A stretch of DNA of 63,694 nt. Origin: Minisyncoccota bacterium. GTDB taxonomy: Bacteria > Patescibacteriota > Minisyncoccia > Phycocordibacterales > UBA5272. Every line of letters starts with the position of its first letter. Position 1 is the stretch's first letter. The notes under the pieces were generated by a model. It was given only the letters and a program-made list of their open reading frames with translations, made no database searches and had not been told where the DNA came from. Below are positions 12,983 through 31,188 of the stretch, piece after piece. A program made the position numbers and the translations under genes. Location: assembly GCA_041651055.1 (NCBI GenBank), contig JBAZJW010000005.1:1-63694 (forward strand), written 5' to 3'.

Positions 12983-12983
12983 T

Positions 12984-14189: not shown

Positions 14190-14201
14190 AGAATTAAATA
14201 G

Positions 14202-14240: not shown

Positions 14241-14241
14241 T

Positions 14242-14649: not shown

Positions 14650-15811
14650 CACGGGCTTCTCGAGTATTAGCCGTGACCTAATCAACAGGCTTAACAAGAA
14701 GCCTCAGTATGATTGCAAGTATCTAGGGCATAATTACCAAGGTCAGGCACTGACACGGGGTACAAAGTTCATTGACGGAAGTGAACTTGACTTCGAGCTT
14801 CACGGCGGTGGAATGAAACCCTTTGCTCAGGACGTCATGAGTTGGTGGATTAAACAGCAGAAGCTTGACGTGTTCGGCGTCCTGTTAGATACGTTCATGC
14901 TTTACGGCAGTGACGGGTGGTTTCTTAGACAGGATACTAGCCCTGCAAAGACTATAATGTATTTTCCAAGTGACGGTGAAGCCTGTCTTCCAATCAACTG
15001 CGAGAACATTCTTAGGAAGGTTGACATGCCAGTGGCCATGAGCAAGTTCGCCAAGAAGCAGGCATGGGACGTTTACAAAATAAAGACGGAGTACATTCCT
15101 CATGCTGTTGACCAAAAGCTTTTCTTTCCATTCACAACGGAAGAAAGAATTGCGCTTAAAGCAAAGTGGGGCTTGAAGAACAAGTTTGTTGTTGGCACTG
15201 TGGCCAGGAATCAGCCACGGAAAATGCTGGACAGAACTTTCAAGGCATTCAAGATATTCGCTGAAGGAAAGGATGACGTGGTTTTGTTCTTGCATTCCGA
15301 CCCGAATGATATTTCTGCAGTATTTGATTCTTATCAGTTGATGATGCGGTACAACATTCAGAATAAGGTGTTGTTTTCAGGAGTAAAATATTTTAGAGGT
15401 CTTCCATACAAGGAAATGAACAGCGTATACAACATCATGGACGTTCACTTCTTGTCAACATCTGGTGAGGGCTTCGGAGTTCCAACCATTGAAGCTGCTG
15501 CTTGTGGAATCCCGTCAGTAGTGACAGACATTACCACCACGCAAGAACTCTTGGTTGAAGACGGGGAATGCGGACTTCCAGTGAAGTGCCTTGGCGGAGA
15601 ACTTGATACGCTAACTGGAAGCTGGAATGTTGAGCGAGGAGTAATGGACATTCTGGACGCAGCTAAACAATTGCAAAAACTTTATGATGACGCCAAGCTT
15701 AGAGCCAAGCTCGGCGAGAACGGAGTGAAGAAAGTCGAGAAGTTCTATGACTGGGAAAAAGTTGCGGATGACTGGGACAGGCTAATCAGGGAGAAGGTGA
15801 TGGAACTGTGA
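14600..15811 (+). CDS. GT-B glycosyltransferase, family 4-like
   Basis: STSGEGFGVPTIEAAACGIPSVV is an E-x7-E type motif. SD GAGGTGAAGAGGG precedes the ATG. Confidence 0.75.
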   Translation: MQEKIKLGWMSDSPMFNTGFSSISRDLINRLNKKPQYDCKYLGHNYQGQALTRGTKFIDGSELDFELHGGGMKPFAQDVMSWWIKQQKLDVFGVLLDTFMLYGSDGWFLRQDTSPAKTIMYFPSDGEACLPINCENILRKVDMPVAMSKFAKKQAWDVYKIKTEYIPHAVDQKLFFPFTTEERIALKAKWGLKNKFVVGTVARNQPRKMLDRTFKAFKIFAEGKDDVVLFLHSDPNDISAVFDSYQLMMRYNIQNKVLFSGVKYFRGLPYKEMNSVYNIMDVHFLSTSGEGFGVPTIEAAACGIPSVVTDITTTQELLVEDGECGLPVKCLGGELDTLTGSWNVERGVMDILDAAKQLQKLYDDAKLRAKLGENGVKKVEKFYDWEKVADDWDRLIREKVMEL

Positions 15812-16527
15812 TTATTGCAGCAATGATTTTTCAGAACTCCGAAGACTACATTGAAATGGCTTTGAAGTCAGTCATGACGTGGGCTGACAAGATAGTTCTG
15901 GTGAATGGTGGCTGCACTGACAAGACTCTGGACATTATAACACACCTTAGAGATGAAAGGTTTGTAATGATTTTTAATCCTTGGGATTCTAAGGACAAAG
16001 GCATGGACGGCAAGCAGCGGAATGTGTACTTGAAATATCTTCTGGAAAATCATATTGGTGACTGGTGCTTAGTCATTGACAGTGACGAAGTGGCGAGTGA
16101 TAGCTGCGTGTACCTTAAAAAGAATCTTGAAGAAGTGGAAGCGCAAGGAATCAATGTCATCAGTCCTAAAATGGAGCATTTCATGTACGACTTGAAGCAC
16201 GTTGACGCTTCAATGGACAAGCACTGGTGTCTTCACAGGCTGTTCAAAGTACAGCCAGGGCTTCACTATCCAGAAGTTGAGCACAACGTTTTAGAAGTGC
16301 CCAACATTAAGCATGCGCATACCGAAGGTATAACACTGTATCACTTAGGATATATTAGAGGATTGTTTAGTGTCATGAACAGGTACAACAAGAATCTAAG
16401 CAAGAGCAACATTCATACGCCAGAATTTTTAGACAGGTGGAAGAATCATCACATTCTAGGAACGTACCCTACAAGATTTTATAATGGTGAGTACCCTAGA
16501 GCAATGAAAGAATACTTTGGCATTTGA
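15808..16527 (+). CDS. GT-A glycosyltransferase, family 2-like
   Basis: IIAAMIFQNSEDYIEMALKSV...LVIDSDEV has a DxD-type motif. Confidence 0.6.
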   Translation: MIIAAMIFQNSEDYIEMALKSVMTWADKIVLVNGGCTDKTLDIITHLRDERFVMIFNPWDSKDKGMDGKQRNVYLKYLLENHIGDWCLVIDSDEVASDSCVYLKKNLEEVEAQGINVISPKMEHFMYDLKHVDASMDKHWCLHRLFKVQPGLHYPEVEHNVLEVPNIKHAHTEGITLYHLGYIRGLFSVMNRYNKNLSKSNIHTPEFLDRWKNHHILGTYPTRFYNGEYPRAMKEYFGI

Positions 16528-17081
16528 CGATGGACTACAAACAATCAGACTACAATGATGCGTACTGGGAAGGCAGGGACAAGATAGAGCCTAAACATTA
16601 CGTCATCTGTTCGGACATTTACAAGTCATTCATTCCGAAGACACTTCTTGACTTCGGCTGCGGAGCAGGACAATTGGTAAAAATTTTTAATGATATGGAA
16701 GTTAATGCGTTCGGTTATGAGCCTTCAAAAATTGCGAACACATACAAACGCTCTGGAAAAATTGATTCGCAGTACGCATTCTTAGATTATGATTTGATAA
16801 CTTGCATGGACGTGGCTGAGCATATTCCAGTTGTAGATGTTGATGAGTTCTTGTCAGAAATAAAAAAGGCTTCTGTCAGGGAAGAATTTGTTGTAGTGTT
16901 CAGCATTTGTTTCAGGGGCGACCCAAACTTCAAGCACGACAGCACTCATATCACCGAACGCACTCGAGAGTGGTGGGAATACAAGCTCAGAAGCAATGGC
17001 TACGATATACTAAAGACTCCAACTTTCTGGGCGTTTAATAATCAAATGATGGTCACAAGAATAAAGAAAGAGGTGGGATAA
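16524..17081 (+). CDS. Class I SAM-dependent methyltransferase
   Basis: Motif I LLDFGCGAGQL. Confidence 0.7.
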   Translation: MTMDYKQSDYNDAYWEGRDKIEPKHYVICSDIYKSFIPKTLLDFGCGAGQLVKIFNDMEVNAFGYEPSKIANTYKRSGKIDSQYAFLDYDLITCMDVAEHIPVVDVDEFLSEIKKASVREEFVVVFSICFRGDPNFKHDSTHITERTREWWEYKLRSNGYDILKTPTFWAFNNQMMVTRIKKEVG

Positions 17082-17082
17082 G

Positions 17083-17943
17083 TTGACGCAAAGGATTAGT
17101 ATACATATTGCAACGAAGGACAGGCATTCAGAGATTGCCTGCTTGTTAGTGAGTCTTCGCAGTCAAACATTTCAGGACTGGGACTTAGTGATTGTTGACG
17201 AGAGTCAGACACCATTGAACACTCACGTGCCCACAATGCACTTGCTTAATAGGCTGCGCTTGGAAGGTCACAAGGTCAACTTGATGCGCAATACAATGCT
17301 GTTAGGCGTGTGCCATGCTAGGAATATCTGCATTGACAACGATACTTTCAAGAATAAGCTAACACTAAGAGTAGATGACGACGTCATTCTTGACACTGAC
17401 TACATAGAAAAACTTTACAATGTTCTTGCGTCAGATTATGACATTGCTTCTGGAGTGACTCCATTAGTATCGCAGCCAGAGTTCATTAGAGAACCCAAGC
17501 GTCTGAACGGAATTGTCAATAAGATTGAGTACGACAAGGAAGGAAACATTGTCAGGCTTGATGATGACTGCGGAATGTGCTACGACGGATATGTTAATCA
17601 ACCTGACGCAGATGGAGATTGTCTGCTACCTTTTGATATGGTTGTTTTGCCAGCAGACCACTTCCGTAGTTGCGCATTATACAAGACTGAAATCACTGAC
17701 AAGGGCATAAGATATGAGTCTAACTTGAGCCCAGTGGGTTTCAGGGAAGAAAGTTTTTTCAGCCTCAGAGCAAGATACTTGGGTTGCAATATTGGCGTTG
17801 ACCTGTCAGCAAAGGCTTGGCATTTCATGACTCCTTCTGGCGGTTGTCGTTATCCCAATTATCAAGAACTTGTGATGCAGGACAACGAGCTGTTTATGAA
17901 ATGGTCAAAGGCTATGTTCAAAGAAAAAGGTGAGCCGAAATGA
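17083..17943 (+). CDS. GT-A glycosyltransferase, family 2-like
   Basis: ISIHIATKDRHSEIACLLVSLRSQTFQDWDLVIVDES...RVDDD. It uses a TTG start. Confidence 0.65.
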   Translation: MTQRISIHIATKDRHSEIACLLVSLRSQTFQDWDLVIVDESQTPLNTHVPTMHLLNRLRLEGHKVNLMRNTMLLGVCHARNICIDNDTFKNKLTLRVDDDVILDTDYIEKLYNVLASDYDIASGVTPLVSQPEFIREPKRLNGIVNKIEYDKEGNIVRLDDDCGMCYDGYVNQPDADGDCLLPFDMVVLPADHFRSCALYKTEITDKGIRYESNLSPVGFREESFFSLRARYLGCNIGVDLSAKAWHFMTPSGGCRYPNYQELVMQDNELFMKWSKAMFKEKGEPK

Positions 17944-18356
17944 TTAGAGTCACAGTGAGTGGCGGTTTCGACCCATTGCATATTGGACACTTGAGGATGA
18001 TGCAAGAAGCCAAGACGCTCGGAGACTACTTGATTGTCATCGTAAACAATGACAACTGGCTGAATAAGAAAAAAGGTTACACGTTCATGCCAGAAAATGA
18101 ACGGGTTGAACTCATTGAAGGACTTGCCTGCGTTGACGAAGTAGTACTGTCCAAGCATAAGCCCAACCCTGACGACATGAGCGTATGTAATGAACTCCGT
18201 GACATCCAGCCAGACATTTTTGCGAATGGTGGTGACAGGTTTTCTGACAATACTCCAGAGAAGAATCTTTGTGACGAACTAGGTATTGATACAGTGTTCA
18301 ATGTTGGTGGCGGAAAAATAAGGAGCAGTAGCGAACTTGTCAACAAATGTAGGTGA
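17940..18356 (+). CDS. Cytidylyl/adenylyl-transferase of the HxGH family (TagD / RfaE domain II-like sugar or glycerol-phosphate activation)
   Basis: SGGFDPLHIGHLRMMQEAKTLGDYLIVIVNND...ERVELIEGLACVDEVV. Confidence 0.75.
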   Translation: MIRVTVSGGFDPLHIGHLRMMQEAKTLGDYLIVIVNNDNWLNKKKGYTFMPENERVELIEGLACVDEVVLSKHKPNPDDMSVCNELRDIQPDIFANGGDRFSDNTPEKNLCDELGIDTVFNVGGGKIRSSSELVNKCR

Positions 18357-18362
18357 TGAACA

Positions 18363-19457
18363 ATGAAGCTTAATGTTATGGGAAACGTTTTCAGTCAGAC
18401 AGGATTCTCGGTTCATACAAGATTCTTAGCCGAAGCACTGCAGGACTCGGGCTATGACGTTGCCATTGAAAGCCCGAAGCACCCGAACTGGGAAATGCTT
18501 TGCCCTGATAAAATGTTTAAGATGTTGAACAAGAACTATCAGCGTGAGCCAACAATAATGATTACATCACCAGATTATTATAGGCTCAAGTGGGCTGACA
18601 ATCCTGAGAAGCTTATTGGATTCTGCATTTGGGAAGGAGACACTGTGCCTAAGTCTTGGACTAGAAACTTGGAATTGTGCGACCAGATTTGGGTTCCGAG
18701 CGAGCATGTAAAAAATGCTATTATGCATTCACTAAGTTCTGAAGAAGTTGAGGAGCTCGCGATTGTGGAAAAAATGTTTGTTGTTCCTCATGGCGTAGAC
18801 CTCAAACAATTCTACCCGAAGAAAGTGGAACGGGATGACCGATTTACTTTCGTAGCTGTTAAGGGTTGGGCTGAAGGGCTTAACGACAGGGGTGGACTCC
18901 AGTACCTAATTAGAGCCTTTGTGGACGAGTTTCAAGAGGGTGAGGCTGTTAAGCTTATGGTCAAAGTGAACGCTGTATACGGCGGTTCAGAAGAGCTTGT
19001 AGGCTCTTGGCTTAAACAAGCTGGTATAGAGAAGCTTCCGAGTAACGTAGAGCTAGTATTTAAAGACATTCCGTACTCTGAGCTAATAGATACCTATAAC
19101 AAAGGGGACGTCTTTGTATGCTCCACTAGGGGTGAAGCTTTTAATCTCGTAGGATTAGAGGCTATGGCTTGTGGGCTTCCAACGCTGCAAACAGGCTTTG
19201 GCGGTCAACTGGATTATATGACTCCAGGCAATTCTTGGTACATTGATTGTAAGCTCGAAGAGGTCACTCATAACAAGCTTCTTGAGGGAATCAAGTGGGC
19301 TACACCTGACCATGAAGACCTAAGAGTCAAGCTTAGATACTGCTTCGAACATCAAGATGAAGTAAAACAAAAGGGAATTCAAGCTTTGAAAGATGTTCAA
19401 GAATGGTCATGGAATAATTCTGCAGTGAAAGCAAAGCAGGCTCTTGATAAATTATGA
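18363..19457 (+). CDS. GT-B glycosyltransferase, family 4-like
   Basis: STRGEAFNLVGLEAMACGLPTL. Confidence 0.7.
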   Translation: MKLNVMGNVFSQTGFSVHTRFLAEALQDSGYDVAIESPKHPNWEMLCPDKMFKMLNKNYQREPTIMITSPDYYRLKWADNPEKLIGFCIWEGDTVPKSWTRNLELCDQIWVPSEHVKNAIMHSLSSEEVEELAIVEKMFVVPHGVDLKQFYPKKVERDDRFTFVAVKGWAEGLNDRGGLQYLIRAFVDEFQEGEAVKLMVKVNAVYGGSEELVGSWLKQAGIEKLPSNVELVFKDIPYSELIDTYNKGDVFVCSTRGEAFNLVGLEAMACGLPTLQTGFGGQLDYMTPGNSWYIDCKLEEVTHNKLLEGIKWATPDHEDLRVKLRYCFEHQDEVKQKGIQALKDVQEWSWNNSAVKAKQALDKL

Positions 19458-19745: not shown

Positions 19746-20375
19746 TCACCTCACAAGTGTGGCATGTTGTGCCCAACTATGTTCCTGATTGAACGTCCAC
19801 CACAAGTCATAATATTTCTTTAGTTCGCTATGCGGGACATTCTTTAAATAGTTTTCTATACTTTCTACTGGGTAATAACACCAGTCCAAGCAGTACCAAC
19901 GGAAATCGTCTTTCAAATAAATGACGTAAGCGTGCCCAACTCTCTTATTGGTTCTTGGCTCTAGCACATAACCGCAGGCAACTTTCCTGCGCCAAGCAGG
20001 AATATCAGCAGCGTCCATTAGTGTCATGAGCATTAAAGCTCCGTCTTCACAGTCACCAGTGCCCAACGCAAAGGTTTCTGCAGGTGACTGCCAGCGTTCA
20101 GGTTTGTTCCATTTAAGCATATCACTCTTGTACGATACACGCTTCATAACAGCTCTGAGACATGTCAGTGCTGCTTCATCATGGCTTTTAGCCTCACCAC
20201 TTATAGTATTGCCAAGTTCTTGTATTTCCATACAAGTGTCAGTGAGTGTTGTACGTATGTCAACAAGTTCTCCGCCAGTAATTGTCATGTATTTTATATT
20301 AGACTTTGGCCACTTATTATTCCAATAATTTTCAAATACTGAAGGAAACGCTTTTATTAACGGCGAAAAATTCAT
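19746..20375 (-). CDS. Transglutaminase-like cysteine peptidase (candidate lysin; Pei-like fold class)
   Basis: GTGDCEDGALMLMTLMDAADIPAWRRKVACGYV...GHAYVIY...WYCLD gives a Cys-His-Asp core in the transglutaminase order. Confidence 0.6.
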   Translation of the reverse strand: MNFSPLIKAFPSVFENYWNNKWPKSNIKYMTITGGELVDIRTTLTDTCMEIQELGNTISGEAKSHDEAALTCLRAVMKRVSYKSDMLKWNKPERWQSPAETFALGTGDCEDGALMLMTLMDAADIPAWRRKVACGYVLEPRTNKRVGHAYVIYLKDDFRWYCLDWCYYPVESIENYLKNVPHSELKKYYDLWWTFNQEHSWAQHATLVR

Positions 20376-20386
20376 TATGATTCACC

Positions 20387-21913
20387 TCATTTATAACCTA
20401 GCCATGCACTCCATATTTTTGGTGTGGGATTGTCAGTATCACTCTGCAAGTTAAATCTTATTTTTATAGCTATTCCTTCCACTGTCGGAACTGTTAACGT
20501 ATTTAATCCAATACCTTGCCATGTGCTACCATTGTCAACGCTGAACTCAAACGTGCAAGAGTTATAATCTTGCCCATGTATCCTAAGTTCCACACCAGTT
20601 ATTACTGCATCACTATATTTTGTTATACTTGTTGCACTGCCAGATGATTGTCCAGTATCTAACATGAGTGTACTATTCAATTCTTGTGTATTAGTGTGCG
20701 TAAATTGTGACGAACTTTCTTCGAAGGTGTAACATATTGCATCTGTGATGGCATTAGGATTGTTGGAGGCTTGTATGTTGCCTGTTATCTTATCATCTCT
20801 TAATGAAATAATATCCCATAATTCAGTGCCATTACGTTCATAAGAAAGTGTAGTTACCCAATTGGCAGCACTAATATTGTGAGTGAACTCTTGCACTATA
20901 TGAAGTCCTGAAATGTCACACCTCGGGCATTCACAGTAAATGCTTTGTCCTGGACGAAGTGTTGGAAGTCCATGAAGTACTGTAAGTGTTCCTTTGGTAT
21001 CTGTTACGTTGGAACTTCCAAGCTTTAGACTAACATCAGTCTCAATTGCTTCCTGTGAATGAAGATTGTTATCATTGACTAATAGGTCTTTCTGCCAAAA
21101 ACTAGCTATATCTGTGCTATCTTTTTTACTTTTAGCATAATAAAAATTTCCAGCACTTTCAACCTTGTCGCCAGTCATTATGATATTATTACGACGTTCT
21201 AGAAGGTCTTCACCATAATTATTCACTGCCGCAAGGTTCTGTCCTATGACTACACTCTCAGCAGTATTTATTTCTTGAGTGAACGTATGTATATCGTAAT
21301 CAAAATCTAAGTAGCCATAGTACCCTGCTTTGTTCAATGCATCACTGAATATTTTTGCAGGTTTTGCCCAAGTGTAATCTCTATAAATTAATGTGGTCAT
21401 TCCAGTGCTCATGTTAGTAGTTGTAAGAATACTAGAGAACCAGTTAGTGACCATAGAAGATAATAACACATATACTGTCTGGCTCGTAACACTCTCAACA
21501 ATTAGCCTGTCTTGAACTTCTGGAGCTTCCCTGCCTTCAAGTACCATAAAATATCCGTTGTTAGCATCAAAGCTTTTGAAAGGTGCATCGATTTTTCCTC
21601 TGAATATTTGATTAGTTGCATCTGTAAAATCTGCATAAATGTCAATTCTTTCTCCGCCCGTAATGATAGAGTTCCACTTACCTTCTGTGTTATCAATGTC
21701 AACAGTGAAAGTTCCAAAGCCTCGATTAAGAGTTTTTCTTGTTACAGAAATATTAAGCACATGAGGACTTGTAGAGCTTGCGAGGTCGACTTGAGTTCCG
21801 CTATGAAGCGTAACTAATACTTTTAATTTGGGCGTATAAGTAGAACGTGGAGTAATTACAATAACTTCATCATCATGAAAACTTCCAGAATTAGGTCGTG
21901 ATAGTGTTGCCAT
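20387..21913 (-). CDS. Tail/baseplate structural protein (508 aa)
   Basis: Called from its position at the distal end of the tail module. No motif was quoted. Confidence 0.4.
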   Translation of the reverse strand: MATLSRPNSGSFHDDEVIVITPRSTYTPKLKVLVTLHSGTQVDLASSTSPHVLNISVTRKTLNRGFGTFTVDIDNTEGKWNSIITGGERIDIYADFTDATNQIFRGKIDAPFKSFDANNGYFMVLEGREAPEVQDRLIVESVTSQTVYVLLSSMVTNWFSSILTTTNMSTGMTTLIYRDYTWAKPAKIFSDALNKAGYYGYLDFDYDIHTFTQEINTAESVVIGQNLAAVNNYGEDLLERRNNIIMTGDKVESAGNFYYAKSKKDSTDIASFWQKDLLVNDNNLHSQEAIETDVSLKLGSSNVTDTKGTLTVLHGLPTLRPGQSIYCECPRCDISGLHIVQEFTHNISAANWVTTLSYERNGTELWDIISLRDDKITGNIQASNNPNAITDAICYTFEESSSQFTHTNTQELNSTLMLDTGQSSGSATSITKYSDAVITGVELRIHGQDYNSCTFEFSVDNGSTWQGIGLNTLTVPTVEGIAIKIRFNLQSDTDNPTPKIWSAWLGYK

Positions 21914-24900
21914 TAGTCAATCACCACACATCCACCATATCCATCACCTGAATCTGAGCAATAGCTAGTCCACCAATTCCACCAAGCATAATAAGGTCGT
22001 CCTGACACGTTATAAAAATCTGCAAGTATATACACTGGATATTCTGAAGAATTGGTGACATTCTGCATAAATGCCTGTCTGCTATAATTAAGTACCACTG
22101 TTGATGATGCAAGTTTTGTTGTCTGATTCATTATATACATTGTTGTAGAATTCGTCATGTTGGTGGTATTTATGTAACCATCTGTTGCATTGGTTTGTAA
22201 ATACAAATCAATATTATGGTCAAATGCTGAGCTTGAAACATTCTGAATACTTAAATTTTTAAATCTGCTCATAACTTGTCCGTGAGGACTTACATTTTTC
22301 TGGCTTGAACTCATAGGGTTAAATAACATGTAAGTAATTCCTGTAGGAACAAATTCTACACTGAACGGGGAATAATAAATCATCATGGTTTGTGATTCAG
22401 AATATTCATCATTATGCCCAGTGATAGTAATATTACCAGTGCCTCTATATTTAACTCGTAAATCTGAAAATTGTATAGTGGTATTAGAATTATTCACAGC
22501 AATAGATTTATTACAATCTTCTGTAGAACAGTTAGAAAGATTAAAACTTGAATAGTTTAAACTAACATCTGCTAGTGTCCCAGTTGCAGTTAAATTCCAA
22601 AAAGTGAGATAGCCTTTACTAGTTGATAAAATATCAAATATTATTGGAACATCACATGTTGTGGTTGTATTACAAGTTGATGATTGTAAATAATTATTGA
22701 AAATATCACTATCTAAGGTAACAACAGTGGGCGTTGTTGAATTGTTTAAATCTCCACTGACATTGAATTGGTATGATATATTAGTTCCTACTTTCACGCC
22801 CAAATCAGAAACAGAATCGCTTGATACCTGCAAATCAACATAGTACATTCCCACTGGAAGCTCTGTCTGCGTGTTGGTCATATTTATCTTGTAACGTAAG
22901 TATTTTCCTGGATTACTAAATGTTAAGAAACTTTCATCTGTAGCCTCTTGCCAGTTAGTACCATTATCAGCTGAAACATATAATCTTACATCAGAACCTG
23001 CAGGTTGTAACTCACTAAAGTCTGGATAAACATTTACTATATCCTCATCACTTGATAATATAATATCTGAAAATGCTTCTGCACTTGTCTGATTATCTAA
23101 CCAATGATTATCTGTCTGTGAATAATTAATTCCTGCTCCACTATAATTTATCTGATAGAAGTAAACATAACCAACACCAGTTCCTCCACCGAAACCACAA
23201 TCAGCTCCATAACCATCCGCATATCCAAATGAATATCCTTTAATGTTTGTACCACTTCCTGGATTTGCAACAGTTTTTAGAAATACTCCATCTTTGTAAA
23301 CATATAATTGTGTAATGTCACTAGCATTATATCTAAAACTTAATACTCCTGAAGATGTAGAACTTGAACTACCATAACAAGATAGTGATATTACCTCAGT
23401 GTTAGGAAGTGTGCCTGCTGCATTGGTGACCAAATTTATGGATGCTATACCTATACCACTTCCAAAATTTCCCCAACACCCGTTTGATTCATACCCGTAT
23501 GCACTACAACTCATATTGTAATAAATGTCTACTCGTGTTTTTGTATTAAAATCCAAGCCTTTAGAATTTAAATGCGCATACTGCTGTGCTGTGTCAATAT
23601 AGGAACCATCTGAGTATGCTGTTGCACTTGATAACGTATATATAGTCTCATTAGAATCCCACTCGGCAATACCTTCACCGCCTTCATTATAATTCCATCT
23701 TCCACTTACGTCAGAAGTCATATCATCAAACACAAACGTTGGAAGTGATGTTGAATAATATGAGCCGTTGTTAGTGTCATCAAAATAACTATCATTGTAC
23801 CAAAGTTCTAAATAGTCTAATTCTATTGGATTTGATGCAGTTGCATTAACCCAAAACGTAATGTTATCTTGCATACTAGCAGCACTGCTTAAACGTATAT
23901 ATGTTGTATAGGTACTAGTAGCTGTAAAATCAACGTCTGTTAATGTTGTTGTATTATCATACCACCTGTTTTCAACAAGTGTATTATTATTTAAGTATCC
24001 TCTAAAAGTTACTTGTGTATTATTGTCGTTATCACTGTCCAGTGTTGTATCAAGTGTTGTGTCATAAGCATATATATCAACTGTTACACCAGTAAGTTCA
24101 CTCCAGTTTTTTGTATTGAATTCAAATGTACCATTATCTGTAATATTTATTTCTGATACTCCAGTACTAAACTCCGTTGTTTCAACGTATGGAATTGTAA
24201 AATTGTAATATAAGGGCAACGTTCCGCAAGTGTAATTTATTCCATAATCTTTAAGACTAATGTCTATACAAAATGTTGATGCATAACCATCTGATGATAA
24301 ATTTATGATTGGAGTTGTGAACATCTCCCATTTCTTTGTTGTATTATAATCTTCAATTTTAAAAACTAATGTAAAAAGTCCCAATATTCTTTCAGCACTA
24401 TAATTAATATTTCCAGAGGTATCAGTACAATTAATGTACCAATAATATGTGCCAGTAGTCAATAATAATGTAAACGTAGCATTACCCGATGAAGTATTTG
24501 TAGTGTTACTATTATTATTTATGTACAATGTACAGTTTCCAAAACTGTATGCGTCACTAGCTGTATAATTGAATACCACTTCATAACTTGTATTCGCATA
24601 TGCGGTTTCATTGGCAGGACTGTTTATTACTAACGACGGAGGATTATTATCAATAATTATCGTCATGTTTTGACTATTAGCTGAATCAGTGCCATCACTA
24701 CAATTTATCCAGAATGCCCATTGCCCATCGTCAATAGTAGAGTTAGCAACTAATGTAGAATATACAGACACATCTACACTATCATTAAATCCGTAATTAG
24801 TTCCGTTAACAAAAATTGAGCAGTTTAGAATGTCACTGTCAATATCGTCAGCTTCAAAATCAACAGACAGTGTATTATTTGTTGTTGCTGTATTATTAGT

Positions 24901-27900
24901 CATATTTACAATTGTAACATTTGGAACACTATTACTTACTGTAATCTGTTCAGAATAATTATATGGTGACGAAAACAGTTCATCAATTGCCTGAACGGAA
25001 ACATTTATTTTGTCAGTTTTAGAAAAATATGAATTATCTAAACTAGAATTAAGTATTGTTCCTGCAACTGTATTATTAAACGATTCACTAAAAATATATG
25101 TATCGTTGATGTACCAAAAAAATGTTATATTGCCAAGTCTTGAATAATAATTATAGTATGACGTATTAGCACCCAAGTATGAATTTGTATATACTGTTGT
25201 CAAATTAAATTCTGGAGCTGACACCAATATAGGATTAGTTGGATAAACAGTTACAACTGACGAATTGAGCCAAGAACTATTTGCTGTAATATTACTGGCC
25301 AAACATGAGAATGTCCAATTAGTGTCTACTGCTTGACTTGAAATAGTATTTATTGCGTACTCTACACTTTCTTGGAATGGTAATTTACTTGTATAATTAA
25401 CTTCTGCAAATGTTACTCTGGTAGAACCTGAACCATCTGAGCCTCCATCGTCAGCTTGTTGTTCTGTCTGGATATAAATATCTCCTGATAATGTATCAGC
25501 ACATAATAATTCATCTGTATTATTATAGACATAAACTGTATCTGCTGTTGTGTTTATGACAATAAGTAAATCAATATAATCCACAAGATACTGTACAGAA
25601 CAACCTGGAGTGCCACTACATAATGCAATACCACCCATGGCGCAAATATTATCAGTACCATTACTTATCTGTGTATACGCATAGGAATTAGAATTTAATA
25701 CTGCGGCTGCAAGAACTGTCATATTTTTTATTGTAACGTTTATTGCGTCAGGAGCATTAGATAATGTAGTAAAACTTATAAGTTGTTTAACACCACCAAG
25801 AATAGTTGATGCACCATCACCACCAGGATTAACAACAGAAGAATTTAAAACATTCAATCCTTCTGACAATGTTGATGTGCCAACAGGAGCGTCACCCCAT
25901 AATGTTGTATTGACAACCGAATCATCAAAATTATCGTAAGTATAATTTCCTATTGACGTGTAATTAATACTTCCAGAACTATTTAATCCGTCATCATTAA
26001 ACCATTCATAATAGAACCAATCTATAATGTCACCGTCAACATCTGTCGCATTACAATATCCTGTTAATGAACTATTGGTATATGCTGGGTCAGGAAGTAT
26101 TCTTGACGTATTTACAACAGCTAAGGAATTCAGTATTCGTATTGCAGAACTATTAATAGCAGTCCCATTGTGTGTTCCATTCTGTGGTGTTATCTGTATT
26201 ATTACCATACTGTCTTTTCTCACATTGGTAAGAGTTGTTATGTTGGTTGAATTTGCAAGTCCCGAACTGTTGTATACATCATTGATAAACCATGTAAAAT
26301 ATGAATCTGTTTCTGCGTCCTCGTCAACATCAGTTATTGTATAGTTAGGAATCAATACTGTATCATAATACGCTGTTGTTGGAGTAATATTTACATTGGT
26401 GACAACTGGTAATGTATCAGTCATCTGAATACAGTATTCTTCGGATTCATTTGAGTGTCCAAAATTTGAATCGTTTGCCCAAAACTTCCAGCATACTTCA
26501 GGCTTATGGGTGATATTTAATATTGATGTAACACTCACATTGATAGAAGCTGCAGTATTATTGATTACTGAAGAACTATTTGTCATTATGCCAGATATAT
26601 TTGACGCAAAAATATAATAACTAATATTTCCAATCGTATCTGTTATGGTGATATTTGTTATTAAGCTACTATTATATTTGAATGTATCATTAGATGTATT
26701 TTTTGCATTTTCAAAATATGGAGCATTAGTATCTTTTGTTATAGAATAATTTAAACTTGTACCTGTAATACCATCATTAATACACGCAACCCAGAAATAA
26801 TAATAACCATCTGATAACGTAGTGTTACTAGATATATTTGTTGGTGTATTATTCAATACAGAATCGTTTGTATTATATATAGTTCCATTAATTAACAACG
26901 AACAATTCAACGTTGCATAAATATTATCTGTTGCATTTATATAAGCCCACTGTATATTCTCATTTGCAATAGTGTCATTTTCTGGTGAAATAATAGTTAC
27001 TTCAGGTATAGAACCCAATGTGATATTTAATAATCCGCTAGTTGAACTTTCTGTCTCGACATTAAGTGTTCCATCAATACAAGCTATGAATAATTTATCT
27101 GATGATGACACCAACGCATCACCTGCAGCTAATGTGCACACATGACTATTTGTTCCTGTTGTTGAACAATTTCTACTGGTGCCCATCGTTGTCCAGTTTT
27201 GGTCTTCTTTATTTATTCTGCAATAAGCATTTTGTATTGTATTAAATGTTACTGTTGGAGTAGTGTCAATAGTCAATATTGATGTTGCCTCATTACCATT
27301 TCTCCAAGCAGTACTATTTTGTCCACTACTTGCGCTTGTTAAATTATATGTTGAATTATCTATTGTTGGAAATAAATAATCAAAAGGATATGCAAATCCC
27401 GCACCACTATTATACATATTTGATATTTCTGTTGCATTTAATGTTCTATTCCATTGTGCGAACTCGTCTATCGTTCCCTGAAACCAGTCATTATTTCTTA
27501 TGCTCCAAATGGCTAAGTAGTTTAATGTAGGCCATGCTCTTATAATATTTGCATCAGTAAGAGTGCTTTGTAATACTCCATTCAAATATAATTTACATGT
27601 GCCAGCAGTTCCATCAATTATCACCAAAATATGATTCCAAGAATTATTACTCAATACGCTACCATAAGTAAAAAGACCACCGCCTGTATTTAAATTTACA
27701 GTTAAATTTTCAGTTGCAGTTCCTCTTGTCATTATAGCCCAGTCACCCGCAGCCCAAGCACCATTAGAAGATGAAGCCACTATTGCATTATATCCAGCAG
27801 TTGTCCAGCCACCTATGCCATGTTTGTTTACCCATACGCTAACAGTCGTATTCGTGGTTTGAGCATTTGCTGAGTGGTTAAACCTCTGGTCTATTGCTGT

Positions 27901-28095
27901 GAAATTATAAGCCTGATTAAAGAATCCTGTAACGTTGCTTGGTGTTCCGAGCTTCGTGTATGTTTTTCCTACGTCGGCAGTTAGAACTCCATTGGTAGCT
28001 GAGTAGTATTGTATTAGTCCATCTGTTAATGCTCCCATAACTGAACTCGACAACATAAAAACAACAATGAACCAAAATAAAATTTTAAATTTCAT
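21913..28095 (-). CDS. Giant (2060 aa) secreted LamG/concanavalin-like domain protein, extremely rich in N-x-S/T sequons (adhesin/fibre-like)
   Basis: N-terminal signal-like MKFKILFWFIVVFMLSSSVMGAL. LamG pattern ...TVSVWVNKHG...WNHILVIIDG...CKLYLNGV...FQGTIDEFAQWNRTLNATEISNMYN. Sequons occur throughout. Confidence 0.8.
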   Translation of the reverse strand: MKFKILFWFIVVFMLSSSVMGALTDGLIQYYSATNGVLTADVGKTYTKLGTPSNVTGFFNQAYNFTAIDQRFNHSANAQTTNTTVSVWVNKHGIGGWTTAGYNAIVASSSNGAWAAGDWAIMTRGTATENLTVNLNTGGGLFTYGSVLSNNSWNHILVIIDGTAGTCKLYLNGVLQSTLTDANIIRAWPTLNYLAIWSIRNNDWFQGTIDEFAQWNRTLNATEISNMYNSGAGFAYPFDYLFPTIDNSTYNLTSASSGQNSTAWRNGNEATSILTIDTTPTVTFNTIQNAYCRINKEDQNWTTMGTSRNCSTTGTNSHVCTLAAGDALVSSSDKLFIACIDGTLNVETESSTSGLLNITLGSIPEVTIISPENDTIANENIQWAYINATDNIYATLNCSLLINGTIYNTNDSVLNNTPTNISSNTTLSDGYYYFWVACINDGITGTSLNYSITKDTNAPYFENAKNTSNDTFKYNSSLITNITITDTIGNISYYIFASNISGIMTNSSSVINNTAASINVSVTSILNITHKPEVCWKFWANDSNFGHSNESEEYCIQMTDTLPVVTNVNITPTTAYYDTVLIPNYTITDVDEDAETDSYFTWFINDVYNSSGLANSTNITTLTNVRKDSMVIIQITPQNGTHNGTAINSSAIRILNSLAVVNTSRILPDPAYTNSSLTGYCNATDVDGDIIDWFYYEWFNDDGLNSSGSINYTSIGNYTYDNFDDSVVNTTLWGDAPVGTSTLSEGLNVLNSSVVNPGGDGASTILGGVKQLISFTTLSNAPDAINVTIKNMTVLAAAVLNSNSYAYTQISNGTDNICAMGGIALCSGTPGCSVQYLVDYIDLLIVINTTADTVYVYNNTDELLCADTLSGDIYIQTEQQADDGGSDGSGSTRVTFAEVNYTSKLPFQESVEYAINTISSQAVDTNWTFSCLASNITANSSWLNSSVVTVYPTNPILVSAPEFNLTTVYTNSYLGANTSYYNYYSRLGNITFFWYINDTYIFSESFNNTVAGTILNSSLDNSYFSKTDKINVSVQAIDELFSSPYNYSEQITVSNSVPNVTIVNMTNNTATTNNTLSVDFEADDIDSDILNCSIFVNGTNYGFNDSVDVSVYSTLVANSTIDDGQWAFWINCSDGTDSANSQNMTIIIDNNPPSLVINSPANETAYANTSYEVVFNYTASDAYSFGNCTLYINNNSNTTNTSSGNATFTLLLTTGTYYWYINCTDTSGNINYSAERILGLFTLVFKIEDYNTTKKWEMFTTPIINLSSDGYASTFCIDISLKDYGINYTCGTLPLYYNFTIPYVETTEFSTGVSEINITDNGTFEFNTKNWSELTGVTVDIYAYDTTLDTTLDSDNDNNTQVTFRGYLNNNTLVENRWYDNTTTLTDVDFTATSTYTTYIRLSSAASMQDNITFWVNATASNPIELDYLELWYNDSYFDDTNNGSYYSTSLPTFVFDDMTSDVSGRWNYNEGGEGIAEWDSNETIYTLSSATAYSDGSYIDTAQQYAHLNSKGLDFNTKTRVDIYYNMSCSAYGYESNGCWGNFGSGIGIASINLVTNAAGTLPNTEVISLSCYGSSSSTSSGVLSFRYNASDITQLYVYKDGVFLKTVANPGSGTNIKGYSFGYADGYGADCGFGGGTGVGYVYFYQINYSGAGINYSQTDNHWLDNQTSAEAFSDIILSSDEDIVNVYPDFSELQPAGSDVRLYVSADNGTNWQEATDESFLTFSNPGKYLRYKINMTNTQTELPVGMYYVDLQVSSDSVSDLGVKVGTNISYQFNVSGDLNNSTTPTVVTLDSDIFNNYLQSSTCNTTTTCDVPIIFDILSTSKGYLTFWNLTATGTLADVSLNYSSFNLSNCSTEDCNKSIAVNNSNTTIQFSDLRVKYRGTGNITITGHNDEYSESQTMMIYYSPFSVEFVPTGITYMLFNPMSSSQKNVSPHGQVMSRFKNLSIQNVSSSAFDHNIDLYLQTNATDGYINTTNMTNSTTMYIMNQTTKLASSTVVLNYSRQAFMQNVTNSSEYPVYILADFYNVSGRPYYAWWNWWTSYCSDSGDGYGGCVVID

Positions 28096-29111
28096 TGTTG
28101 TACCTCTAATTTATGAACAGGTAAAATATAACTTTTATTTATCCATTCTATTATCCCATTTTTACAAATTATTTGTTCGTCAAATATTTTACAGCACGTT
28201 TCACCACCACTAGAAGAACATGCACCATCACAATTACCATCAATACATGAATCACAAATAACCCCATCATGATTTTCAGAACACATATATCCCTGTTTTT
28301 TAAAGTCAACTGTTTTATTATTAACAGTTAATATTTCTGAACAATTTTGCTTTATTGATGATATTATTTTTATTTCATCACCAAGATATATAAGTTCATC
28401 TTCAATAATACTACCATTGTCAGTAGATTTATTTACTATTATGTGTTCATATTGTGGTATAGTTTCATTATAATATGTTGTCACACCGATGCAATTCTTT
28501 ATTATTTTTTTCTGTGGATTATTCATTTCTATGTTAAAAATTTCATCGTTAATAATAGGCTTGTACTTTATTGTAAGCTTATCCTCTCCAACTAACTGAC
28601 GTACTTTTGCATAATAAGCTCCATTTTGCCATATTATTCTTATATTATGACCAAAATTTTCAGGACTAATAGCATCTCTTGTTGCTTCAGTGAATCCTTC
28701 AAGATTAGAATATTCTACCTGCAATATTTTTCCTTTGCAGTTCAAGCATCTTATAATGCTGCTAAGGGAGACAAAGTCAACCTTGTCCAGCATAGGATTG
28801 AAAACATAAGTTTGCTGTACAGTAATATTTGAAGCGTAAGTAACATTTCTTATAAGATGAAATTCAGTTTCTGAAATATTCTCATAGCCATGGCTTCTTG
28901 ACTTTGCTGTCATGAGCTTTGAACCATTGTAAAGTTTGACAGTTTCTGTTGCTCCGAGTTCCCACGAAGAATCTTCCCAAACGTAAAGCTTTGTGTTCGT
29001 GTCACTAACAACTATCTTAGCACCTTCAGGAAGCATAATGTATATTGAGACACTAAGTATAGTTAAGATTAAAAATCCTATTGTTATTTTTGTTGTATTT
29101 CCCATGGTCAA
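28092..29111 (-). CDS. Membrane-anchored/secreted Cys-rich protein (339 aa)
   Basis: N-terminal hydrophobic ITIGFLILTILSVSIYIML. C-terminal CSENHDGVICDSCIDGNCDGACSSSGGETCC. Confidence 0.6.
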   Translation of the reverse strand: MTMGNTTKITIGFLILTILSVSIYIMLPEGAKIVVSDTNTKLYVWEDSSWELGATETVKLYNGSKLMTAKSRSHGYENISETEFHLIRNVTYASNITVQQTYVFNPMLDKVDFVSLSSIIRCLNCKGKILQVEYSNLEGFTEATRDAISPENFGHNIRIIWQNGAYYAKVRQLVGEDKLTIKYKPIINDEIFNIEMNNPQKKIIKNCIGVTTYYNETIPQYEHIIVNKSTDNGSIIEDELIYLGDEIKIISSIKQNCSEILTVNNKTVDFKKQGYMCSENHDGVICDSCIDGNCDGACSSSGGETCCKIFDEQIICKNGIIEWINKSYILPVHKLEVQQ

Positions 29112-29479
29112 TCATATTGGTCTTGGATAATCGTCATATTGTAGCGAAGATTAGTTACTGTTGCAGCAGTTTTTGAATCATCAAAAAATGTTAAGTCTTC
29201 AACAATATAATTGCCATTACGTTCTGAATTACCGTCAGTATAAGCATGTTTAAGACCATCTCGTAATGCTCGTAAATCAGTGCGTGCTGAATCAATAGTT
29301 GTTGCGCTGCCAATTATTATTCCACTGATAACAAATCTAAAGTCCCAAGCGTCAGCAAACACCTCGTTCATCACAAGTCTTTTTCCAAGTAATTGTTTTC
29401 GAGTAGCAGGCACTGATGTTTCTAAAATATTTTCAGCATAGATAGTTACGCCGCCGAATGTTATTGTTGTATATGCCAT
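29108..29479 (-). CDS. Small tail protein following the tape measure (123 aa)
   Basis: Called from position. ATGA-type overlaps on both sides. Confidence 0.45.
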   Translation of the reverse strand: MAYTTITFGGVTIYAENILETSVPATRKQLLGKRLVMNEVFADAWDFRFVISGIIIGSATTIDSARTDLRALRDGLKHAYTDGNSERNGNYIVEDLTFFDDSKTAATVTNLRYNMTIIQDQYD

Positions 29480-31188
29480 TATGCTACACCTGTCACTCTC
29501 TTAGATTTTGATGAATTGTCAGTGGTGTAATAATTGTTAGTGACATTTCCACTATGAAGTGCAGGGTTGTAACCACTTCTTTTTGCAGATTCTGTTTGTG
29601 TCATATAAGTCTGTGTGCCTATATCCCAAACAACATTGCTTTGACTAGGGTCTCCTGTACTACTTCCTGAGCCACCTTTGTATGAAACGCCACCACTGCT
29701 TCCTCTTGAACTCTTACTACCACCTGAGCCACCTGACATTGCAACTTGAGCCTTGACCATTGCCTCAACGACCTTTCTTGTTTGGCTGTCTAATTGTTCT
29801 AAGCAGTTGCTGTAGCTTTCTTGCGCAGTGGTTGCTTTTATGACTGCCTTGACGTCAGCGTCCTTAGATATTATTCCTTCTTGGTAAAGCACTGTCATTG
29901 ACTTGACAGTTTCTCCCATGAGATACTCATTGTCCATAAGGTTAATCTTGGCTTCCTCGCTTTTCTTTATTGTGCGAGTGTCCGAGTCTATGGCTTCGGT
30001 GTGCTGCGTTGTCACGTCAGTACCTGTACCTCCACCGACACTTCCGCCACCAATGGTTGCTGCTCCGTTGAGTCCAGGAATGGCATTGCCCGTTACTGCT
30101 CCACCTGCTGCTTTTTCTGCCTGAATCTGTCCGTACTCTGCAGCCGTCATGAGTTTTCCACCAAAAGAACTTCCGCCTACACGCATTGCGTCCTCAGCGG
30201 AATATCCTGCATTAATGTAATCATTTATGTTAGCCCTTTTTGCTGCACTCATCTTGATGTCAGCAAAACTATCCGCAGTGAAAACATCTTTGGCAAGTCC
30301 TATAACATTACCAAGTTTTGCTCCAAGGTCACCGACCTTGTCAATCACCCATCCTATTCCTGTGAGCATTCCTGATAATACTTTGCCAGCAGCCTGCCCC
30401 AATGCTATCCAATCATCTTTGTGTTCTATCAATACATCAGCCAACTCAGTTAGAGTGGGAATTAATTCATTGCCTACCTGCACTTTAAGGTCTGAGAATT
30501 GTTTGTTAACCTTGGCAAGTTTTACAGAAAGACTTTCCTCAAATACAAGTCCGTTGTCTTCAATTGTTTTCTTCATGCCTTCAAGAGTAGCTTGCAAGAA
30601 TGCTTCTTTCTTTTGAGTTTCAGTAAGTGCTGCTGCCACTGTGCCGTGAACATTTGCATAATTTTGGTATGCTGCTTCTGCGTCCACTATTATTCCCAAG
30701 TTATCTAGTATAAGTTTGCTTTGTCTACCAACACCTAACGTTATGTCCCCAACTGCTTCCGTTACTGACCTTCCAGTGAGCTGTCCAAGAATCGCTGCTC
30801 GCTCAAAAAATTCAGGAAGCTTGTTCTGTTCAATTCCTAACGCAAGTGCCTTGTTAGCACTGGACATAAGTTCAAAATCTGTGACTGTCTCATGAGTTGC
30901 GTTGTTTAAAGAAACTAACAAGTCGTCACTGTTCTGTGCCATCTTCTTGAACTGTGCTGTCATTACTTCTGCATTAGCAGCAGCCTTAACGCTGGAAACT
31001 CCGAAGGTAAAAAGTCCTGCAGCTGCTGCTGTCAGTGCAATTCCTCCAACCCTTGCAGCCATGCCAAGCTTGGTCATGCCAGTTTCTGCCCTGTTAAAAG
31101 TGTCCGAGAATTGGTCGTACGCCTTGATGACTATTCCAACAGTGGCTCCGCCTACAATACCACTCATTAACGAATCACCAAGTCCCAT
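29479..31188 (-). CDS. Tail tape measure protein
   Basis: 569 aa, helical and Ala/Gly-rich with hydrophobic segments and Gly/Ser tracts. It follows the frameshifted chaperone. Confidence 0.75.
   Translation of the reverse strand: MGLGDSLMSGIVGGATVGIVIKAYDQFSDTFNRAETGMTKLGMAARVGGIALTAAAAGLFTFGVSSVKAAANAEVMTAQFKKMAQNSDDLLVSLNNATHETVTDFELMSSANKALALGIEQNKLPEFFERAAILGQLTGRSVTEAVGDITLGVGRQSKLILDNLGIIVDAEAAYQNYANVHGTVAAALTETQKKEAFLQATLEGMKKTIEDNGLVFEESLSVKLAKVNKQFSDLKVQVGNELIPTLTELADVLIEHKDDWIALGQAAGKVLSGMLTGIGWVIDKVGDLGAKLGNVIGLAKDVFTADSFADIKMSAAKRANINDYINAGYSAEDAMRVGGSSFGGKLMTAAEYGQIQAEKAAGGAVTGNAIPGLNGAATIGGGSVGGGTGTDVTTQHTEAIDSDTRTIKKSEEAKINLMDNEYLMGETVKSMTVLYQEGIISKDADVKAVIKATTAQESYSNCLEQLDSQTRKVVEAMVKAQVAMSGGSGGSKSSRGSSGGVSYKGGSGSSTGDPSQSNVVWDIGTQTYMTQTESAKRSGYNPALHSGNVTNNYYTTDNSSKSKRVTGVA

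Follow-up and report, generated by a model that had tools for sequence, protein, structure and literature searches.

A low-GC tail-tip cassette encoding a putatively exported, sequon-rich giant protein in a probable archaeal tailed virus

Tails of tailed viruses assemble in the cytoplasm. The spike or fibre adhesins of some non-tailed archaeal viruses, such as HRPV-1 VP4 and SSV1 VP4, are exported by the Sec pathway and N-glycosylated by the host. Phages lambda and T5 encode small exported proteins in their tail regions (Lom and Llp, respectively), so that a tail-region gene can act at the cell surface, and the tail fibre-like adhesins PblA and PblB of Streptococcus mitis phage SM1, which have no signal peptide, reach the surface after lysis. 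The tail tip of the archaeal siphovirus Haloferax tailed virus 1 (HFTV1; PDB 9H4P) comprises a hub, gp44, with a C-terminal carbohydrate-binding domain, together with tail fibres, and the hub domain was proposed to bind S-layer glycans (Sci Adv 2025; PMC12494034). A term search of the text of that paper found no mention of signal peptides on the HFTV1 tail proteins (PMC12494034). Here, we analyze a tail-tip gene cassette in contig JBAZJW010000005.1 (assembly GCA_041651055.1; "the window" is the whole stretch analyzed, 63,694 nt), whose largest gene encodes a protein of 2060 residues, hereafter the giant, with a predicted export signal and a large excess of N-x-S/T sequons.

Several traits of the giant are reminiscent of these systems. 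As in HFTV1, it would belong to an archaeal siphovirus tail tip built of beta-rich, sugar-binding domains, and the HFTV1 tail chain BD is the best fold match of its C-terminal module; however, no sequence likeness to HFTV1 is detectable, and the giant is 2 to 3 times larger and encoded by a gene separate from that of the hub. Similarly to the receptor-binding and Tal proteins of siphophages (Tal extensions, lambda gpJ, the phi812 baseplate, and the LamG-like minor tail proteins of HVTV-1, HHTV-1 and Streptomyces phages), it is encoded downstream of the tape measure, it is a mosaic of LamG, immunoglobulin-like (Ig-like) and lectin domains, and their tail-tip cassettes, too, are swapped whole between relatives. 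Those proteins carry neither signal peptides nor a sequon excess, and their conserved tail-binding part is usually N-terminal, whereas in the giant it is the C-terminal part that is conserved, the N-terminus being a predicted export signal or anchor.

The giant surface proteins of DPANN archaea (such as HYY70_04080 of Candidatus Woesearchaeota and a PGF-pre-PGF protein of Nanoarchaeota) share with the giant an N-terminal signal or anchor, LamG, Ig-like repeats (Big_13, Big_7) and a high density of sequons (4 to 8 per 100 residues, z 8 to 22). However, only one of them, P0009, aligns pairwise with any part of the viral C-terminal module described below, and some have C-terminal anchors, which we found in 2 of 109 members of the viral family. 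The virions of HRPV-1 and SSV1, unlike tails, assemble at or bud through the membrane, and their VP4 adhesins have no homology to the giant; none of Lom, Llp, PblA and PblB is sequon-rich. Export signals are absent from tail fibres, and surface proteins of archaea are usually anchored at the C-terminus, so that the giant misses one defining trait of each.

Taken as a whole, the locus is best explained, with moderate confidence, as a resident viral tail-tip cassette that encodes a Sec-exported, N-glycosylated adhesin and that was swapped within a virus clade. The assignment to the tail tip follows from synteny, gene overlap and fold, and the assignment as an exported glycoprotein from the signal, the topology, the sequon statistics and the Cys content. 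The cassette and the genes on either side are as follows (GC, G+C fraction; GC3, the same at third codon positions).

20387..29479, reverse strand: low-GC tail-tip cassette of four overlapping or abutting, co-oriented genes
29479..31188, reverse strand: tape measure protein, matching PHROG 3779 'tail length tape measure protein' (E 6.8e-7), of normal GC
29108..29479, reverse strand: 123-residue protein after the tape measure, sharing position 29479 with the tape-measure stop
28092..29111, reverse strand: 339-residue signal-anchored protein with an N-terminal transmembrane segment, an all-beta module of about 175 residues and a Cys-rich tail
21913..28095, reverse strand: 2060-residue giant, with putative signal peptide, LamG, Ig-like repeats, unique middle and conserved C-terminal module
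20387..21913, reverse strand: 508-residue hub or Tal-like tail-tip protein (cytoplasmic type), by a weak Pfam YQBQ match and synteny
19746..20375, reverse strand: 209-residue transglutaminase-like cysteine peptidase (Pfam Transglut_core, E 2.1e-7; GC3 0.39), just outside the island

Within the tail module, the giant is thus encoded after the tape measure, in the order tape measure, 123-residue protein, 339-residue anchored protein, giant, hub and transglutaminase-like peptidase. Consecutive genes overlap at 29479 (tape measure and 123-residue protein), over 4 nt at 28092-28095 (339-residue protein and giant) and by 1 nt at 21913 (giant and hub), which indicates that the island and the upstream tape measure form one transcription unit.

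An exhaustive phmmer search of 1.84 billion representative proteins with the C-terminal module of the giant matched at least 150 clusters, of which 96 reach E <= 1e-10. Among the matches listed, all but a few lie at the protein's C-terminus, the proteins being typically 1000 to 3000 residues long; these matches include giants from six of the loci compared below, and one family member is annotated 'viral metagenome'. The variable regions of the relatives carry LamG, Kelch and sialidase-lectin domains. The giant therefore belongs to a viral family in which a variable adhesion or sugar-binding N-terminal and central part is joined to a shared C-terminal module of about 800 residues, unannotated by Pfam and PHROGs.

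Seven family loci were compared, namely L026, L027, L028, L031, L033, L034 and the window's own copy (L001), together with an eighth, L029. Three of the related loci were found through hub homologues and four through homology and representative searches.

L028: hub 71% identical; giant of at least 636 residues (locus cut); high GC
L027: hub 62% identical; giant of at least 1734 residues (locus cut); GC 0.39
L026: hub 45% identical; giant of 1326 residues; 54.6-kb contig
L031: hub 30% identical; giant of 2976 residues; intein-containing polymerase B
L029: hub 27% identical; marginally related giant of 2038 residues; uniformly low GC
L033: hub E 3e-45; giant of 1381 residues; intein-containing polymerase B
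L034: hub E 3e-58; giant of 1777 residues, after a 711-residue signal-bearing LamG protein

In all seven family loci (30 to 71% hub identity), the gene immediately upstream of a homologous hub encodes a family giant, and hub orthologues (27 to 71% identity) follow the giant in all eight. In the loci that reach far enough upstream (L026, L031 and L033), the tape measure is followed by a protein of about 120 residues and then by the giant, and the layout of L034, where the 711-residue protein precedes the giant, is comparable to the two-gene arrangement of the window. The L029 giant is marginal (E 3.6e-12 at 14% query cover; pairwise, 301 residues of the C-terminal module align at 27% identity) and has a different C-terminus, so that we regard L029 as supporting synteny and not as a family member.

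Within the giant, the following parts can be distinguished.

28030..28095, reverse strand: signal peptide-like N-terminus (residues 1-22), MKFK, then ILFWFIVVFMLSSS, then VMG before the predicted cleavage site and AL after it
27421..27870, reverse strand: LamG or concanavalin A-like domain (residues 76-225), Pfam PF13385
26236..27318, reverse strand: Ig-like repeat block 1 (residues about 260-620), by sequence matches
24136..24873, reverse strand: Ig-like repeat block 2 (residues about 1075-1320), by sequence matches
21916..24441, reverse strand: family-defining C-terminal module (residues 1219-2060), all-beta, multi-domain and lectin-like, ending in YCSDSGDGYGGCVVID

Signal peptides were called heuristically, from hydrophobicity, charge distribution and the -3/-1 rule. 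An earlier reading of the window, made from the sequence only, was right in describing the giant as carrying a cleavable-looking signal, an N-terminal LamG domain and sequons along its whole length. The N-terminus (MKFKILFWFIVVFMLSSSVMG, followed by AL) has the expected n-, h- and c-segments, with the positively charged n-region MKFK, V at -3 and G at -1, and contains the lone hydrophobic segment of the protein (KD19 2.28). The last 60 residues hold no hydrophobic segment that could serve as a C-terminal anchor (maximum KD19 0.15). A class III (pilin-type) signal was considered and dropped, no K/R-G/A motif being found ahead of the hydrophobic stretch. The same organization recurs in the family: a hydrophobic segment is present at the N-terminus of 93 of 103 full-length members, and the charge distribution is positive-inside, corresponding to an N-in/C-out topology, in 84 of 96 (mean charge +1.5 in the N-flank versus -1.46 after the segment).

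The giant contains 136 N-x-S/T sequons versus 53.4 +/- 6.1 expected (z 13.5), spread along its full length. This excess is unchanged by shuffling within blocks of 20 or 40 residues, and the reversed motif S/T-x-N is not enriched (44 versus 53 expected). Three further proteins of the window bear predicted signal peptides.

35316..37722, reverse strand: three signal-peptide proteins of 368, 240 and 197 residues, in a normal-GC region (GC3 of the three, 0.35 to 0.44) between head and tail-connector genes

Their N-termini read MKLSIIAIMLLLCMPIAFA followed by S, MQYLKIFYWFLFLILASAISFA followed by G and MKWVIACFALALLCAVAYA followed by S, respectively, and small residues occupy -3 and -1 of the cleavage motifs (A-F-A, S-F-A and A-Y-A, as compared with V-M-G in the giant). 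They hold 21 sequons versus 9.9 expected, 10 versus 3.8, and 5 versus 2.7, the excess being clear in two. Together, the five signal-bearing proteins (the giant, the 339-residue protein and these three) contain 183 sequons versus 73.6 expected, whereas the other 59 open reading frames (ORFs) contain 88 versus 97.3. In this genome, the sequon excess therefore tracks the export signal and is largely confined to the five signal-bearing proteins, the exception being a small ORF without signal at 5272-6012 (4 sequons versus 0.9 expected, tiny numbers). Archaeal N-glycosylation by the AglB pathway occurs on the outer face of the membrane, and sequons tracking the signal are what would be expected if these proteins reach that face. 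Across the family, sequons exceed expectation by a median of 2.45-fold. Since the giant of the GC-rich locus L028 is also rich in sequons (5.0 per 100 residues at GC 0.48), low GC is not the cause of this richness.

The LamG domain was recognized as Laminin_G_3 (PF13385) at residues 76-225, with E 1.9e-14 and 54.5 bits against a cut-off of 27.6, and the precomputed PF13385 hit agrees. Ig-like block 1 matches the viral giant of L027 (E 4e-63) and the cellular-type giants P0004, P0010 and P0008 (E 1e-24 to 3e-22). The best match of block 2, the scores of which are sums over repeats, is P0002 from Woesearchaeota (E 8e-63), followed by the JGI metagenome giants P0003 (E 3e-61) and P0004 (E 1e-48) and then by L027. 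The region between the two blocks is unique, without matches. Likewise, no Pfam or PHROG family was found for the C-terminal module, a PHROGs search with the giant, the 339-residue and the 123-residue proteins gave no match, and profiles of the C-terminal module matched no PDB sequence. Identity over this module is 48% to the giants of L027 and L028 (660 to 840 residues), 34% to that of L031 and 35 to 39% to that of L026.

An AlphaFold2 model of the C-terminal module, built from a 41-sequence alignment, is all-beta and multi-domain (predicted local distance difference test, pLDDT, 86.1). Its best Foldseek match in the PDB is the HFTV1 tail chain 9h4p_BD (953 residues; E 1.6e-5, probability 0.99), a partial match over 434 columns with a TM-score of about 0.1. 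It is followed by an L-type lectin (Emp47p), GH16 jelly rolls, and phi812 and lambda proteins from the baseplate or tail tip; predicted viral structures contribute LamG-like proteins from tailed viruses of haloarchaea, as well as minor tail proteins. Apart from the HFTV1 chain, the matches are to generic lectin and Ig folds. These fold matches of the model are consistent with a sugar-binding tail protein, without proving it.

The companions of the giant fall into two types. The 123-residue protein has neither signal nor sequon excess, and homologues occupy the same position in L026 (126 residues, E 2e-33), L031 (120 residues, E 2e-11) and L033 (122 residues, E 1e-9); from this position, it is possibly a distal-tail ('Dit-like') or adaptor protein. 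It showed no homology to the longer proteins that follow the tape measure in relatives of the capsid gene. The hub has no signal and 7 sequons versus 7.5 expected. Its description as a tail protein in the sequence-only reading is in line with conserved tail synteny and with a match to the Pfam baseplate-hub family YQBQ below threshold (E 5.7e-4, 19.8 bits, cut-off 27); the precomputed YQBQ hits in L029 and L031 are also graded 'weak', and a profile of six hub orthologues matched 7aef_q in the PDB (E 0.0057).

The 339-residue protein, read earlier as signal-anchored and Cys-rich, indeed has a single N-terminal hydrophobic segment (KD19 2.44 at residue 9) without cleavage motif, 12 Cys and 11 sequons versus 3.9 expected. 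The ATG at 29105 is its more likely start, giving 337 residues as in the ENA record. Residues about 8-200 are homologous to the N-terminal 200 or so residues of 17 one-piece family giants (E down to 2e-45), and the predicted model is well defined at residues 25-200 (pLDDT about 90; below 50 for the remainder). By Foldseek, this core resembles the YidC periplasmic P1 domain and the galactose mutarotase-like beta-supersandwich (E 5e-4 to 1e-3, TM-score 0.3 to 0.4), a fold that directly follows the first YidC membrane helix on the periplasmic side and also occurs in many carbohydrate-active enzymes. From these homologies, the 339-residue protein appears to be the detached N-terminal module of the giant, an ancestral one-piece giant having been split in this genome. 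Splitting by a frameshift or sequencing error was considered and rejected, since the second ORF has a complete signal and L034 shows a two-gene layout.

Modules may also move between the giants and small separate exported proteins, judging from the 240-residue protein (35906-36628), whose domain is found inside the giants P0018, P0083, P0076 and P0020. As a side observation, locus L020 encodes at 2470-3912 a 480-residue protein with an N-terminus of the 339-residue type, anchor plus supersandwich (E 1.4e-10), between its capsid and connector genes, the same hot spot as that of the three small signal-bearing proteins of the window.

The low-GC island itself is real. The spot counts of the sequence-only reading (18/60 G+C at 24421-24480 and 30/60 at 40261-40320) are exact, and the sliding-window and codon-level scans that it had proposed as checks agree with them. 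GC is 0.305 to 0.389 in 1-kb windows at 20-29 kb and 0.368 to 0.488 elsewhere (mostly 0.41 to 0.49). Over 20387-29479, it is 0.338 versus 0.439 in the rest of the genome, about 12 standard deviations below the other 365 windows of 9.1 kb (range 0.421 to 0.458, standard deviation 0.0086). GC3 is 0.218 in the 123-residue gene, 0.215 in the 339-residue gene, 0.217 in the giant gene and 0.269 in the hub gene, as compared with 0.36 to 0.69 in nearly all other genes of the window. The extent had to be corrected: on the right, the island ends with the stop codon of the tape measure at 29479 and not at 29111, so that the island holds four genes rather than the three proteins first described, the addition being the 123-residue gene at 29108-29479. 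In a 300-nt profile, both borders are sharp and at gene boundaries, the left one at about 20380 between the hub and transglutaminase-like genes and the right one at 29479. We rejected low GC as a by-product of proteins rich in N, S and T: GC3 falls equally, in the hub and 123-residue genes as well, and since the drop sits at synonymous third codon positions, amino acid composition is not its cause. A search for direct and inverted repeats flanking the island found only short chance-level matches, and no mobility genes were found at the island. Two small ORFs beyond the main island, at 60950-61258 and 46984-47295, have GC of 0.275 and 0.333, respectively.

The sequence-only reading had seen in the giant a likeness to archaeal surface proteins or adhesins, and among its named sequence relatives, the closest are in fact DPANN giant surface proteins from Woesearchaeota and Nanoarchaeota. 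The cellular likeness is limited to LamG (residues about 20-370) and the Ig-like blocks (about 260-620 and 1075-1320), at 26 to 39% identity, and cellular matches cover 5 to 43% of the giant, its long-range relatives being viral only. Since the C-terminal module is viral and the gene lies at the same locus in relatives, the proposed capture of a whole host adhesin gene is not supported, and neither is low GC as its mark, because low GC covers the 123-residue and hub genes too and matches the norm of the virus clade. Indeed, 24 loci with capsids 48 to 62% identical to that of the window have a median locus GC of 0.324 and a median capsid-gene GC3 of 0.216, and L029, L031, L033 and L034 have GC of 0.32 to 0.34. 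As these capsid relatives are mostly low in GC, the composition of the island is the clade norm, and it is the genome backbone that is the outlier. Every related locus that extends into this region has the cassette. This suggests that the low GC reflects a four-gene tail-tip cassette exchanged with a low-GC relative within the virus clade, a module swap of the kind by which tailed viruses usually reshuffle their host range.

How such a cassette might act can be outlined together with a neighboring gene cluster.

14600..19457, forward strand: glycosyltransferase island, in the Pfam order GT1, GT2, methyltransferase, GT2, CTP_transf_like, GT1

In L026, orthologues of five of its six genes (33 to 46% identity) lie at 12823-19054 beside the tail tip, there on the same strand, with extra methyltransferases; no orthologue of the cytidylyltransferase was found in L026. 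From its proximity, this island could supply or edit a virus-specific glycan. In the mechanism that we propose, the giant, the 339-residue protein and the three small signal-bearing proteins would be exported through Sec in an orientation that leaves the N-terminus inside and most of the protein outside, their sequons would be N-glycosylated by the host oligosaccharyltransferase with a glycan possibly shaped by the adjacent viral glycosyltransferases, and the exported proteins would fold with disulfides outside the cytoplasm. The giant would then be the adhesin of the virus and dock to the cytoplasmic hub only after a breach of the membrane, either beneath the S-layer or following lysis. Such a two-compartment tail assembly, in which exported N-glycosylated adhesins and smaller decorations are held under the S-layer or on the membrane and dock at lysis, is a tentative idea for a widespread clade of archaeal tailed viruses, one that we consider rather doubtful. 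For the giant itself, a place on the tail tip appears most likely, slightly ahead of display on the infected cell alone, which is nearly as likely.

Several points weigh against a resident, swapped cassette encoding an exported tail adhesin. To our knowledge, no tailed virus adds Sec-exported proteins to its tail; the reviews consulted describe none that does, and a limited literature search turned up no account of tailed archaeal viruses whose tail proteins are exported or rich in sequons. As the hub and the 123-residue protein have no signals, docking could occur only after the membrane barrier is lost, and a tail made with these two proteins could be complete without the giant. The conserved C-terminal and variable N-terminal parts of the giant are the reverse of the usual fibre polarity. 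Its glycosylation is predicted from sequence statistics and its signal peptide by a heuristic, and the Foldseek matches of the C-terminal module are domain-level only (TM-score 0.1 to 0.4). As for the swap, no cassette donor was found, and the uniform divergence from L026 (hub and 123-residue proteins about 45% identical to their orthologues, the flanking tube and tape measure 42 to 43%) also fits a local drift of composition within the lineage.

All of the export and sequon evidence applies equally to late glycoproteins that remodel the surface of the infected cell and are absent from the virion. In this role, the giant, its 339-residue anchor and the three small signal-bearing proteins could keep progeny from being lost on debris by masking or occupying receptors, exclude superinfection or glue infected to uninfected cells. 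A minimal tail tip formed by the hub and the 123-residue protein would agree with this, as would the signal-bearing proteins encoded outside the tail tip (at 35316-37722, and the 480-residue protein after the capsid gene in L020) and the exported tail-region proteins Lom and Llp. However, the giant is strictly upstream of the hub in every locus inspected and overlaps it stop to start, a conserved 800-residue module in a protein of 1000 to 3000 residues would be very costly for an exclusion factor, a virion tail protein is the best match in fold, and no other receptor-binding candidate was recognized in the genome; we thus hold surface remodeling alone to be possible, on the unlikely side. An ordinary cytoplasmic fibre, with a buried or membrane-piercing hydrophobic N-terminus and sequons that are glycosylated in the cytoplasm or unused, would be in keeping with the tail-module position and the adjacent, conserved glycosyltransferase island. 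Cytoplasmic glycosylation is known for chlorovirus capsids, for the STIV capsid (A197 transferase) and for HMW1C, which acts on N-x-S/T of Haemophilus HMW1, and tape-measure proteins too carry hydrophobic segments. This is nevertheless improbable in view of the N-in/C-out charge of most family members, the textbook -3/-1 motifs of four proteins, the tracking of sequons with the signal within one genome, and a Cys-richness that suits an extracytoplasmic protein; moreover, no GT41/HMW1C-type enzyme was seen among the transferases of the island.

Regarding the origin of the cassette, the reuse as a fibre of a host adhesin captured whole, with low GC marking foreign DNA, has in its favor that all named LamG/Ig homologues come from DPANN archaea, that the Ig-like blocks match cellular giants better than nearly all viral family members, that cellular giants are equally sequon-rich, and that the gene of the best cellular hit, in a Woesearchaeota genome bin, is in a cellular setting, beside another giant surface protein and with no viral genes nearby. 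We consider it very improbable, since the likeness covers about one-third of the protein, the C-terminal 840 residues are virus-specific and widespread, the gene keeps its place in distant relatives, low GC extends over cytoplasmic neighbors while the Woesearchaeota gene has a GC3 of 0.39 and not 0.22, and neither flanking repeats nor mobility genes were found in the searches above. Exchange of individual domains between the giant and host surface proteins is, by comparison, quite plausible, if still short of probable. Local mutational or selective pressure without transfer (codon choice for late expression or export, or fast host-range evolution) would account for island genes as diverged from L026 as their flanks and for the absence of a recognized donor, and the giant gene has the lowest GC3 among its neighbors, by a lesser drop, in L026 (0.37 versus about 0.45) and L027 (0.315 versus 0.37 to 0.45). 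The sharp borders at gene boundaries make it unlikely, as do the equal effect on the cytoplasmic 123-residue and hub genes, the GC-rich state of the same genes in L028 (GC3 0.56 to 0.61) and the normal GC3 of the three exported proteins at 35-38 kb. An assembly chimera, a fragment of a low-GC virus joined into a higher-GC genome, could be envisaged for a metagenomic assembly with related low-GC viruses in similar samples; yet genes overlap across both borders in a continuous operon, the region is found in two assemblies (63,701 and 63,694 nt) that break at different points, and synteny agrees with the relatives, which makes it extremely improbable.

The remainder of the window fits a complete virus genome. 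Its last 134 nt (63561-63694) repeat the first 134 (1-134), and the second assembly (ENA ERZ27247363 k141_3129174, 63,701 nt) is a rotation with its break inside the hub gene, starting at about 21059 of the window; together, they indicate a circular or terminally redundant, complete genome of about 63,560 bp. Its genes include those for a large terminase, a portal with a fused MuF domain, an HK97-type capsid, a tail tube and the tape measure, as well as a family B DNA polymerase, an RFC-like clamp loader, a helicase, a thymidine-hypermodification set and the glycosyltransferase island. No tail sheath gene was recognized in the ORF scans of the window, and no integrase or transposase among the ORFs scanned. 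The sole isolate matching both the terminase (32% identity) and the capsid (26%) is the haloarchaeal Halogranum tailed virus 1. This tailed virus is probably siphovirus-like and of an archaeal host, and the sharing of Ig-like modules with DPANN surface proteins hints at a DPANN host, nothing more. The transglutaminase-like peptidase also follows the hub in L026, L027 and L028 (31 to 53% identity) and is possibly a lysis or envelope-cutting enzyme.

Other searches for relatives gave little. No match came up among 50,697 phage records in megablast searches with the island and with 20 kb of structural genes, and no provirus or binned relative was found in 185,579 species genomes with the capsid protein or a 10-sequence alignment of the C-terminal module as queries. 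A hub pattern search of IMG/VR viral contigs found no relatives, and a tail-tube search confirmed 2 stretches but no locus.

Some further features of these genomes are recorded here. A P-loop nucleotide kinase 3, a glutamine amidotransferase-like protein, an amino acid:DNA transferase (ADDT) and a GNAT acetyltransferase at 336-3105 (forward strand) likely form the thymidine hypermodification set. A lone tRNA-Met gene at 48398-48480 (reverse strand) is 83 nt, above the usual length. Directly after the capsid gene, a G/T/A-rich protein of 346 residues with 11 Cys and no Pfam match (39024-40064, reverse strand) could be a head decoration or fibre, and a 330-residue protein with 15 Cys and a SPASM iron-sulfur domain match (49795-50787, reverse strand) is possibly a radical SAM maturase. 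Intein-containing family B polymerases are found in L031 (26838-28931), L033 (21606-24146) and L034 (15063-17378), and one of these three relatives encodes an anaerobic ribonucleotide reductase and its activase, which points to anaerobic hosts.

The striking low-GC island, then, need not mean host gene capture. A tail-tip family of at least 150 metagenome clusters carries predicted export signals and a selective excess of glycosylation sites, which is unexpected for tail receptor-binding proteins. Either these viruses add glycosylated adhesins to their tails in an extracytoplasmic step, or large glycoproteins that remodel the cell surface are a routine component of tail-tip operons. Two-compartment assembly, if true, would be a route not known for any tailed virus, and virions would carry host-type or virus-edited N-glycans on their receptor-binding proteins; the adjacent glycosyltransferase island makes virus-directed editing of N-glycans directly testable. 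The C-terminal module and the hub together provide a marker for finding such viruses, and either outcome would change the annotation and the study of host recognition in uncultured archaeal viruses.

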